Sequence record: NC_134263.1
Direction: 5' to 3' (one strand)
Length of the DNA stretch: 64,000 nt
From: Escherichia phage T5_ev219
Of this stretch, positions 10,328 through 11,100 are shown piece after piece. Below the pieces are notes generated by a model. That model did not search any database and was not told the origin of the DNA. It saw nothing but the letters and a program-made list of their open reading frames with translations. Within the stretch, counting starts at the first letter, position 1. Each line of letters opens with the position of its first letter. The position numbers and the translations under genes were made by a program.

Positions 10328-10777
10328 TTAAGTTTTAGTGACAACAGGCTTATAAAATGTATGTCCCTTAATCTTAGTTGTTTTCTTAAACTTCTTTGTC
10401 CAGTATGGTTTATCTTTACCACTATGGAAGTATAAAGCTCCATGTGTAGGATCTTGTGGTAAATCAACGTAGTATATCACTCTAGCTAAATTCTTGGCGG
10501 TTTGCCAAGCCTCATCAGTTTTATCAACTTTTGGTCTCTTAGATACCCAAGAGAACTGGTTAGACTGATATACTACTTTACAGTAGGAATCTGGGAATTT
10601 ACCGGAGTTTACACGGTTTTTAGTAACATGTGCAATCGCCGTCATTCCCTTTATGCCCTCACCACGACTTTCGAAATAGATATTTTTAGCAATGCAATCT
10701 ATTTCTTTTGCATCGTGCGATGCCTGACTACTAAAGCTGAAGGTAAGGGCAGCTACTAAAAGCAAAGCTGCCTTCAT
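10328..10777 (-). CDS. secreted SleB-like cell-wall hydrolase (Hydrolase_2 family)
   Basis: Signal peptide MKAALLLVAALTFSFSSQA; NIYFESRGEG...GMTAIAHVTKNRV...VVYQSNQFSW matches SleB-type motif; start set to ATG 10775-10777 with AGGAG RBS (ORF-track start is TTG). Confidence 0.6.
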   Translation of the reverse strand: MKAALLLVAALTFSFSSQASHDAKEIDCIAKNIYFESRGEGIKGMTAIAHVTKNRVNSGKFPDSYCKVVYQSNQFSWVSKRPKVDKTDEAWQTAKNLARVIYYVDLPQDPTHGALYFHSGKDKPYWTKKFKKTTKIKGHTFYKPVVTKT

Positions 10778-10782
10778 TCTTT

Positions 10783-11100
10783 TTACTCCTGCCAATCATA
10801 TTCAACACGATTGGGATTTTCTTTATACCCTAAGTCAAGCAAATCATTACGCATAGTTTGCTTAGCTACGGGATTCGAGGTTACTAGTACCACTTTCTTT
10901 GGTCTCTGCCCAAATTCTAAGAGTAAACGAAGAATTTGATAACCTTCCATACCATCTACAGCCAAGTCATTATCCATATAAACAAAGTGGCCTGTGGTAT
11001 CAGTTTTATTCAGAAACTCGACAGCGGCTTCTGGGGTTCGAATGATAATGTCCATTCCGTGAAGATTACGCACATCATCAATCAAAATATGAAAAGTCAT
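10783..11100 (-). CDS. stand-alone receiver (CheY-like REC) domain protein
   Basis: HILIDD (acidic pair after beta1), FVYMDNDL (phospho-acceptor Asp position), VVLVTSN (Thr/Ser), Lys near C-terminus; no output domain. Confidence 0.45.
   Translation of the reverse strand: MTFHILIDDVRNLHGMDIIIRTPEAAVEFLNKTDTTGHFVYMDNDLAVDGMEGYQILRLLLEFGQRPKKVVLVTSNPVAKQTMRNDLLDLGYKENPNRVEYDWQE

Follow-up and report, generated by a model that had tools for sequence, protein, structure and literature searches.

A Stand-Alone cREC-Family Protein and a SleB-Type Hydrolase Encoded Side by Side in the T5-Like Phage T5_ev219

cREC Proteins and Other Related Systems

The cyclic-phosphate processing Receiver (cREC) family was described by Iyer, Anantharaman, Krishnan, Burroughs and Aravind in 2021 (PMC7824862) and was taken up again in a follow-up of 2022 (PMC9503650). 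According to the authors of the family, cREC is never found with histidine kinases, and cADPr-type substrates have been proposed by them as an alternative (PMC7824862). In the literature too, phosphoesterase activity on cyclic phosphates is a prediction, and no cREC protein has been biochemically characterised (PMC9503650). The published prototypes adjoin genes for RNA ligase, Nudix, 2H or sirtuin proteins, whereas the cREC gene considered here adjoins a cluster of phage tRNA genes and a gene for a SleB-like hydrolase; no RNA ligase, kinase, Nudix or sirtuin gene adjoins it in Escherichia phage T5_ev219. Common to its product and to the published family are the conserved DD and DxD aspartates, the phage-borne and stand-alone condition and the lack of a kinase partner. 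A literature search with the locus tags of the T5 orthologues (T5.083 and T5.084) and for cREC experiments returned only the two comparative-genomics papers, and none newer.

In HAD-type phosphatases the nucleophilic Asp is followed, at a distance of two residues, by a second Asp, and the site is completed by a Thr/Ser, a basic residue and a pair of acidic residues that bind metal. cREC follows the same catalytic-residue logic, which is an analogy of mechanism and not family membership, as the DxD lies after beta3 in cREC and after beta1 in HAD enzymes, and cREC shows neither a cap domain nor sequence homology to them. Classical receivers such as CheY and Spo0F (PF00072) share with cREC an acidic pair after beta1, an Asp ending beta3, a Thr ending beta4 and an aromatic residue in beta5. 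Unlike them, cREC has no alpha1, alpha5 or conserved Lys and no kinase partner, and it carries an invariant Asp at position D+2, an Asn at T+2 and two Arg.

The closest described relatives of the second protein are the SleB/CwlJ spore-cortex lytic transglycosylases of Bacillus (4F55, 4FET), which it matches in fold with a TM of 0.71–0.79 (target-normalised) and 28–31% identity, the catalytic Glu lying in the same Y-x-E-S-R-G-E motif. Unlike Bacillus SleB, the phage hydrolase has no N-terminal peptidoglycan-binding domain and carries a predicted signal peptide instead, as well as a conserved Cys pair; moreover, the phage host is Gram-negative and does not possess the muramic-lactam of the cortex. 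Signal-peptide and SAR endolysins (Lys44 of the Oenococcus phage fOg44 and Lyz of P1) are muralytic enzymes that reach the wall via Sec without a holin pore. The phage hydrolase resembles them in its muralytic type and its predicted Sec route; however, Lys44 and Lyz are lysis endolysins, whereas the T5-like SleB gene is located in the early region with an early-type promoter, in phages with a separate endolysin/holin/spanin set. A Gram-negative SleB homologue has been found to work in periplasmic peptidoglycan remodelling (bioRxiv 10.64898/2026.07.21.739787).

Two Standard Genes of T5-Like Phages

The window analysed, 64,000 nucleotides of Escherichia phage T5_ev219 (NC_134263.1), belongs to a Tequintavirus (T5-like phage), and a 2.7-kb region of it is 99% identical to Tequintavirus genomes. 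The cREC-family gene (10783..11100, minus strand; ATG at 11100, TAA at 10785-10783) encodes 105 aa and is the orthologue of T5.084 in the T5 record NC_005859, and the SleB/CwlJ-family (Hydrolase_2, Pfam PF07486) gene (10328..10777, minus strand) encodes 149 aa and is the orthologue of T5.083. Since the receiver-like protein is found in 492 phage records and the 2.7-kb region in 441, both ORFs are, by the evidence of their sequences, genuine genes and not chance ORFs. They are standard T5-like phage genes that were annotated in public records beforehand, so the pair is less noteworthy than the earlier note on this DNA had taken it to be.

The 105-aa protein matches the cREC model PF20274 over residues 4–87 with 54.9 bits (cutoff 27, E 1.4e-14), above the Pfam gathering threshold; its match to Response_reg (PF00072) reaches 12.4 bits (cutoff 30.2, E 0.19) and falls below threshold. 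All the homologues found also match PF20274, and NCBIfam returned no model for the protein. Records PV016700 and PP105779 label it [quoted passage not shown] and identical or near-identical T5-like proteins carry the cREC name in UniProt and GenBank. The family comprises 427 clusters at 50% identity, nearly all of whose members stand alone, with a median length of 106 aa and no output domain, which bears out what had been read from the ORF at the outset. Among the longer members, a scan for fusions revealed nothing beyond a fusion to an HNH homing endonuclease and extensions lacking annotation, and a tblastn search with a distant member (P0049) reached only the same phage groups.

A sigma-70-like early promoter (TTGCTA, 17-nt spacer, TATAAT; consensus score 10/12) lies upstream of the cREC gene at 11131..11159 on the minus strand, and the T5 record NC_005859 annotates a promoter at the same position in front of T5.084. 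Since promoter-like sites are no more numerous in this region than expected from shuffled sequence, the T5 annotation is the main support for this promoter. On the same strand as the gene pair, a cluster of phage tRNA genes extends from 239 to 9386 (minus strand; 14 tRNAs by ARAGORN, with an Rfam tRNA match), the nearest tRNA being ∼1.4 kb downstream of the pair; besides tRNAs, an Rfam search of the region returned no RNA family.

Fold and Active Site of cREC

The AlphaFold2 (AF2) model of cREC (pLDDT 93.5) exhibits the order b1-b2-a-b3-a-b4-a-b5-b6, with no helix between beta1 (residues 4–7) and beta2 (18–20) and with a beta-hairpin at the C-terminal end. Only 8 residues separate the DD of beta1 from beta2 and the protein stops 11 residues past beta5; therefore neither alpha1 nor alpha5 is possible. 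According to the model, cREC is a divergent receiver (Rossmannoid) fold without alpha1 and alpha5, reduced to its catalytic core, and thus receiver-like and not another Rossmann-like fold. A profile search of PDB sequences with cREC reached receiver domains only at E ∼1 and returned no solved cREC structure; matches to TAL effector repeats were rejected as spurious, being summed over repeats with each stretch contributing ∼4 bits.

In the model, D8 and D9 (minus-strand codons 11079-11077 and 11076-11074) follow beta1, D43 (10974-10972) ends beta3 and T74 (10881-10879) ends beta4. Across 161 homologues less than 50% identical to the protein of the window, conservation reaches 99% for D8, D9, D43, D45 (10968-10966) and N76 (10875-10873), 100% for T/S74, 98% for R21 and 94% for R11 (11070-11068). 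Of the receiver hallmarks listed in the earlier note, the DD after beta1, the Asp at the phosphorylation position and the Thr/Ser thus hold at ∼99–100%, and the Lys does not: no alignment column in these homologues exceeds 30% Lys, K93 is variable, and in a weak single-sequence hhalign it is N95 that lies opposite CheY K109. The two invariant Arg, R11 and R21, occur where Lys is usual. Additionally, Y92 aligns with the switch residue Y106 of CheY and is 91% conserved.

The profile–profile alignment of cREC with five classical receivers (E 1e-4) pairs D43 with CheY D57, D45 with N59, T74 with T87 and N76 with E89. On the other hand, D57 of CheY falls opposite D45 instead of D43 in the weak single-sequence hhalign, so that the exact nucleophile is ambiguous; D43 is favored as the Asp at the phospho-acceptor position by the profile–profile alignment and by where the strands begin and end in the model.

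Signaling or Catalysis

Judging from HAD enzymes and from CheY mutants at D+2 and T+2, an invariant Asp at D+2 is expected to destabilize the phosphoryl group and not to hold it. The alpha1 helix is established as the main kinase-docking surface of receivers by structural work on HK853-RR468 and by studies of specificity residues. Both points bear on the earlier suggestion that the phage hijacks the host two-component phosphorelay, according to which cREC would be a true phospho-accepting single-domain response regulator, charged by host kinases or acetyl-phosphate donors, that rewires or drains host two-component signaling. The receiver-like fold speaks for such a role, as do the conserved acidic pocket with its Asp at the phospho-acceptor position and its Thr, the conservation of Y92 at the CheY Y106 position and the possibility that small-molecule donors supply the phosphoryl group. 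However, the protein is a PF20274 member whose Response_reg score is under threshold, it has neither alpha1, with its docking surface, nor alpha5, nor a conserved Lys, and its invariant Asp at D+2 would be expected to destabilize the phosphoryl group. Furthermore, no kinase association is reported for the family (PMC7824862), and no histidine kinase was found next to cREC in the 14 neighborhoods inspected (T5, its relatives and metagenomic contigs). A hijack of this kind is thus unlikely, and a true response regulator is given very little credence. Equally poorly placed is a variant in which cREC takes phosphoryl groups from host kinases or acetyl-phosphate and hydrolyses them fast, so acting as a sink that silences host two-component responses during a SleB-like attack on the wall. 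The responses silenced by such a sink might be those to envelope stress or others, and its route might be small-molecule donors or unconventional docking.

The invariant D43-x-D45 and T74-x-N76 motifs resemble the site of HAD-type phosphatases, and since the layout of D-x-D, T and acidic pair copies that site, cREC is most likely an enzyme and not a stable phospho-switch. It could also be argued that the protein is a pseudo-receiver without catalysis, which would bind a partner protein, a nucleotide or some phosphorylated ligand and so act as an adaptor or sponge. Sponges are common among the proteins with which phages counter host defences, cREC is very small (105 aa), and the sheet face that the model leaves exposed without alpha1 and alpha5 might be a binding or dimer surface. 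This seems improbable, although not negligibly so, given that seven polar residues (four Asp, two Arg and one Asn) plus the T/S are 94–100% conserved in very divergent homologues, that D43, D45, T74 and N76 fall on receiver active-site positions, and that such a pattern is typical of catalysis or metal–phosphate chemistry and not of a binding surface.

Gene Neighborhoods and the Proposed Role of cREC

Among the genes that recur around cREC, those with a link to translation and tRNA (tRNAs, Rnl1, IF3, L12, YqeY) outnumber those with a link to signaling. T4 RNA ligase 1 is encoded four genes from cREC in one locus (L010), NADAR two genes away in another (L017) and DUF4326 nearby in a third (L016), and homologues of IF3 (L015) and of ribosomal L12 (L007) follow one or two genes downstream. 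In locus L011 the distance between cREC and a tRNA is 50 bp, and cREC is found beside a tRNA cluster both in T5-like phages and in the unrelated KVP40-like Vibrio myoviruses, several of the loci being related to each other. Most metagenomic neighborhoods consist of uninformative small ORFs. No RNA ligase gene was seen in the T5 annotation between 20 and 60 kb.

Because of the HAD-like motifs and of neighbors such as tRNA genes, T4 RNA ligase 1, NADAR and translation-factor homologues, cREC is read from its sequence as most likely an Asp-based phosphoesterase acting on cleaved RNA or on ADP-ribose-derived phosphates, the same view as the published prediction (PMC7824862, PMC9503650). The protein would form an aspartyl-phosphate and hydrolyse it quickly. 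Its likeliest substrates would be either the 2′,3′-cyclic or terminal phosphates of cleaved RNA, especially tRNA, or else ADP-ribose-derived cyclic phosphates; in this way cREC would help to keep phage translation going against host RNA-cutting or NAD-based defences. It might act together with the phage's own tRNAs, and the tRNA cluster is a possible source of its substrate. Other possible partners in the pathway, with which cREC might also act, are a SIR2 gene (25281-26105, plus strand; Pfam SIR2 at 9e-24) and a gene for a HAD_SAK_2 "Swiss-army-knife RNA repair" phosphatase (26265-26771, plus strand; Pfam HAD_SAK_2 at 1.8e-20). Together these span 25281..26771 on the plus strand, ∼14 kb from cREC and not adjacent to it; the sirtuin and HAD pair of the T5-like phage SP15 is a predicted RNA-end repair system (PMC9503650).

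The active-site argument serves equally for an enzyme of anti-defence whose targets would be small-molecule immune signals, which it would destroy without any healing of RNA ends, the candidate signals including ADP-ribose-derived cyclic signals and cyclic-phosphate-terminated oligonucleotides. NADAR and DUF4326 in the neighborhoods mentioned above agree with such an enzyme, as do the early promoter in front of the cREC gene and the cADPr-type alternative put forward by the authors of the family (PMC7824862). Still, the recurring neighbors belong to translation and tRNA more often than to signaling, which leaves this predicted enzyme a doubtful candidate beside the phosphoesterase preferred above.

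The SleB-Like Hydrolase

The hydrolase matches PF07486 (Hydrolase_2/SleB) at 2.2e-25 with 89.7 bits (cutoff 27), in line with the family named in the earlier note, and the Foldseek comparison suggested there, performed with an AF2 model (pLDDT 91.8), gave the SleB catalytic domains 4F55 and 4FET as top matches. Its match to the spore_SleB equivalog TIGR02869 reaches 50.3 bits (cutoff 236.5), with only the C-terminal catalytic part aligning. E36 (codon 10672-10670, minus strand) aligns with the first Glu of the SleB YGESRGE motif and is invariant in homologues. By sequence comparison, the protein is thus a true SleB-family catalytic domain with its catalytic Glu.

The N-terminus (MK, AALLLVAALTFSF and SSQA, followed by SHD) displays the charge, the hydrophobic core and the small −3/−1 residues of Sec/SPase I signals, from which a signal peptide is predicted heuristically (hydropathy and the −3/−1 rule) over codons 1–20 (10718..10777, minus strand) with cleavage after SQA, in agreement with the first reading of this ORF. 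A comparable hydrophobic N-terminus is found in 28 of the 30 hydrolase homologues. A TTG start at 10795, given in a mechanical ORF list, was discarded in favor of the ATG at 10777, which every annotated relative uses and which gives 149 aa. C28 and C66 form the conserved Cys pair. The product would be a Sec-exported, probably disulfide-bonded, periplasmic lytic transglycosylase domain of SleB type, presumably made early in infection.

A separate holin/endolysin/spanin cassette is located ∼21 kb away in T5 and in the 99%-identical phage chee24, consistent with the remark of the earlier note that this is not a classical holin-dependent endolysin arrangement. Given such a cassette in T5-like phages, the hydrolase is best seen as an accessory periplasmic enzyme, which might remodel the sacculus or weaken it in advance, in support of the holin/endolysin/spanin set.

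Adjacency of the Two Genes

The ATG of the hydrolase (10777) begins five nucleotides (10782-10778) past the cREC stop, and its AGGAG ribosome-binding site (10786..10790, minus strand; read from the sequence) falls within the last cREC codons, 8 nt before the ATG, both as described in the earlier note. This 5-nt gap, the ribosome-binding site of the second gene within the first, and the common promoter could suggest a functional module in which cREC controls the exported hydrolase, or else that the SleB-like protein is the phage's real endolysin; the adjacency is also kept in a relative that is only 50% identical (L016), and in RefSeq and PHROG the hydrolase goes under the label "endolysin." However, one gene is inserted between the two in falkor, four genes lie between them in L017, and five, in a different order, in My1, and none of the cREC neighborhoods inspected outside the T5-like relatives contains a Hydrolase_2 gene. 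Additionally, the two products differ in location, cREC being cytoplasmic and the hydrolase predicted to be exported, and the endolysin of T5 and chee24 sits elsewhere, beside the holin and spanins. These comparative sequence data contradict a module and largely refute it, leaving it an exceedingly small probability. The pairing is, on the same comparison, a matter of synteny, confined to T5-like relatives and broken in several of them. The proposal is instead of two unrelated genes, tightly packed behind one promoter, which would be early and accessory in T5-like phages: a cREC phosphoesterase of RNA or ADP-ribose phosphates and an accessory exported SleB-type enzyme. As a whole, this explanation is considered to have an even chance of being right.

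Conclusion

The novelty of the locus is low, as both genes are already annotated and named in public records. The early SleB-type enzyme, with its predicted export, would give a phage that has been studied thoroughly a second muralytic activity, as yet unexplained. cREC constitutes a large phage family, of which the model phage T5 has a member, and its HAD-like active site, set in a receiver scaffold, hardly varies; the interest that remains in the family is biochemical. That cREC is found beside tRNA clusters in two phage families unrelated to each other, and close to homologues of RNA ligase, NADAR, IF3 and L12, points to a role in protecting the translation apparatus; if so, the protection would be directed against host RNA-cutting or NAD-based defences.

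Gene layout and phage context

The 2.7 kb around the gene pair shares 99% identity with genomes of Tequintavirus (T5-like, Demerecviridae) and is found in 441 phage records, in 424 of which at least 80% of the region is covered. The pair, flanked by the tRNA region on one side and by early genes of replication and nucleotide metabolism on the other, consists of a 105-aa cREC gene (10783-11100, minus strand, TAA stop at 10785-10783) and a 149-aa SleB-like hydrolase gene (10328-10777, minus strand, from the ATG at 10777 to 10328). Their T5 orthologues (NC_005859), assigned by synteny, are T5.084 (labelled hypothetical) and T5.083 (labelled cell wall hydrolase or endolysin). 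Both genes of T5_ev219 are already known and named, and public records hold proteins 100% identical to the cREC ORF; there is thus little new in the locus itself.

The packing described in the earlier note is borne out: 5 bases separate the cREC TAA from the hydrolase ATG, and the hydrolase ribosome-binding site AGGAG (10790-10786, minus strand) lies within the cREC 3' end, 8 nt before that ATG. No terminator-like site was found between the two genes, and a promoter-like site, TTGCTA-17-TATAAT (11159-11131, minus strand), is located upstream of cREC in the same place as an annotated T5 promoter. T5-like phages keep the two genes adjacent, as does a relative of just 50% identity (locus L016). 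One gene separates cREC from the hydrolase in phage falkor, four in the contig locus L017 and five, in a different order, in My1, and JLBYU43-type phages carry an HNH endonuclease fused upstream of cREC. Given the broken adjacency in falkor, L017 and My1, and since no Hydrolase_2 gene was found near cREC outside the T5-like lineage in the neighbourhoods inspected, the pairing is a lineage-specific synteny with tight packing and not a conserved functional pair.

Upstream of cREC, a gap of 440 bp (11101-11542) lacks any sizeable ORF yet shows 99% identity across the window, T5 and ESCO40. Mini-ORFs of 7 and 14 codons occur in it, preceded by elements that resemble promoters and RBSs. A homing endonuclease occupies the equivalent gap in falkor and JLBYU43, fused in frame to cREC in the latter. 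Directly 3' of the hydrolase are genes for a 56-aa DUF7616 protein (10089-10259, minus strand) and a YqeY/GatB-like protein (9646-10089, minus strand; 'tRNA amidotransferase' in PHROGs), which are served by a separate promoter annotated in T5 and stay with the pair across T5-like phages. Public labels for the early-region genes at 11543-12181 and 12488-13189 (both minus strand) look unreliable: a 212-aa protein carries the label 'tail fiber protein' (phrog_1491), and a 233-aa protein called 'metallopeptidase', 'exonuclease' or 'recombination related exonuclease' matches an Rv2179c-like 3'-5' exoribonuclease domain.

The SleB-like hydrolase

Assignment of the 149-aa protein to the SleB family is upheld by its match to Hydrolase_2 (PF07486, 2.2e-25) and by a model (pLDDT 91.8) whose only PDB matches are the SleB catalytic domains 4F55 and 4FET. 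By alignment, E36 corresponds to the leading Glu in the Y-G-E-S-R-G-E motif of SleB, the catalytic Glu of that enzyme, and it is invariant in 30 homologues. Full SleB identity was rejected, as the score of 50 bits falls below the 236.5-bit equivalog cutoff and the peptidoglycan-binding domain present in SleB proper is absent. The signal-peptide-like N-terminus comprises a basic start, a 13-residue hydrophobic core and SQA|S, with comparable N-termini in 28 of the 30 homologues; together with C28 and C66, which keep a fixed 38-residue spacing, it fits a putative exported, disulfide-bonded periplasmic enzyme. The earlier remark that this is not a classical endolysin arrangement is right: in both T5 and chee24 (99% identical), the genes for endolysin, holin and spanins form a separate set, some 21 kb off and beyond the window. 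The second 'endolysin far from holin' of these phages has been noted in the literature (PMC3326045, PMC11180984), and a 2026 preprint shows a SleB homologue at work in the peptidoglycan remodelling of a Gram-negative bacterium (bioRxiv 10.64898/2026.07.21.739787).

The cREC family and its reduced receiver fold

The 105-aa protein scores 54.9 bits against PF20274 (cREC_REC, cyclic-phosphate processing Receiver domain; cutoff 27) and 12.4 bits against the classical Response_reg model, below its cutoff of 30.2; PHROGs places it in phrog_1479 (function label: unknown). An AlphaFold2 model built from a 41-sequence alignment (mean pLDDT 93.5) predicts a receiver-like fold, in agreement with the earlier note, in the order beta1 (4-7), beta2 (18-20), helix (23-32), beta3 (39-42), helix (53-62), beta4 (69-72), helix (77-89), beta (92-94) and beta (100-103). 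The modest Z and the absence of alpha1 and alpha5 indicate a strongly reduced receiver; the sequence excludes room for either helix, with 8 residues from the beta1 DD to beta2 and a chain that stops 11 residues past beta5. A TAL effector match of the cREC family profile (alignment A2) to PDB sequences (E 1e-17) was dismissed as a repeat artefact of summed stretches of ~4 bits; the cREC motif P-x-x-V-V-L-V-T-S-N-P-V-A resembles the TAL effector repeat TPEQVVAIASNxGGKQ.

The comparative-genomics study that established the family in 2021 reports a divergent receiver domain that never occurs alongside histidine kinases and has gene links to NAD/ADP-ribose processing and RNA repair; the activity it predicts is the opening of RNA ends that carry a 2',3'-cyclic phosphate, or of cyclic phosphates derived from ADP-ribose (PMC7824862). 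It was still experimentally uncharacterised in a 2022 paper, in which the sirtuin and 'Swiss-army-knife' HAD pair of the T5-like phage SP15 is a predicted RNA-end repair system (PMC9503650); no newer cREC literature was found.

Gene neighbourhoods of cREC

About 14 kb from cREC, the window encodes SIR2 (25281-26105, plus strand) and the 'Swiss-army-knife RNA repair' phosphatase HAD_SAK_2 (26265-26771, plus strand). Followed by two consecutive DUF7415 proteins, they form a row (25281-27604, plus strand) that corresponds to the set predicted to carry out NAD-dependent repair of RNA ends in T5-like phages. Nearer to cREC are the YqeY-like protein, the Rv2179c-like exoribonuclease homologue and a same-strand cluster of 14 tRNAs, whose last genes are about 1.4-2 kb away. 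ARAGORN gives the tRNA at 9313-9386 (minus strand) the unusual anticodon ACT ('Ser'; Rfam tRNA score 37.9 bits), in a stretch annotated in T5 as the stable 'RNAX'; the falkor counterpart is recorded as 'tRNA-OTHER', and ARAGORN reads it as SeC(tca).

The position of cREC directly downstream of the tRNA cluster recurs in a different phage family, the KVP40-like Vibrio myoviruses (L005, Vibrio phage nt-1, 3998-4357; L014, 4998-5357); a DUF2828/DUF7788 protein (annotated 'RNA-binding protein') and an RNaseH_like protein lie at most 3 kb past it. In metagenomic phage contigs that carry more distant members, T4 RNA ligase 1 is four genes upstream (L010 3793-4938), tRNAs are 1.3 kb (L010) and 50 bp (L011) downstream, a ribosomal protein L7/L12 homologue is immediately downstream (L007 6306-6659), an IF3 homologue two genes downstream (L015 4590-5060) and NADAR two genes upstream (L017 5072-5560). 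SprT-like genes recur in three metagenomic phage loci and Metallophos in two. These contexts, raw occurrences in a small and partly non-independent sample, support an RNA/translation/NAD theme, and none of the 14 neighbourhoods inspected contains a histidine kinase.

The cREC active site

A whole-library HMM search placed the family at 427 clusters at 50% identity. Of 202 members aligned to the family profile, the 161 with <50% identity to the query were used for conservation. The receiver hallmarks proposed earlier hold for the DD, Asp and Thr positions and fail for Lys: D8, D9, D43 and D45 are each conserved in 99%, R11 in 94%, R21 in 98%, T/S74 in 100%, N76 in 99% and Y92 in 91%, and Lys makes up at most 30% of any column. 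A profile-profile alignment to CheY, Spo0F, PhoB, NtrC and OmpR as classical receivers gave E 1e-4 and paired D43 with CheY D57, D45 with N59, T74 with T87 and N76 with E89. A weaker single-sequence comparison to CheY placed D45 on D57, Y92 on Y106 and N95 on K109; D43 is favoured as the D57 equivalent because of the strand end in the model.

The earlier observation was largely right, and its signalling interpretation, a hijack of the host two-component phosphorelay, is without support: the Response_reg score, the missing helices, the missing Lys and the kinase-free neighbourhoods all argue against it. HAD phosphatases draw both nucleophile and general acid/base from a D-x-D motif, which the invariant D43 and D45 of cREC resemble; in CheY, dephosphorylation is tuned by the residues at D+2 and T+2. 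By analogy, the invariant D45 and N76 suggest a fast turnover of aspartyl-phosphate, which would point to an enzyme and not a switch.
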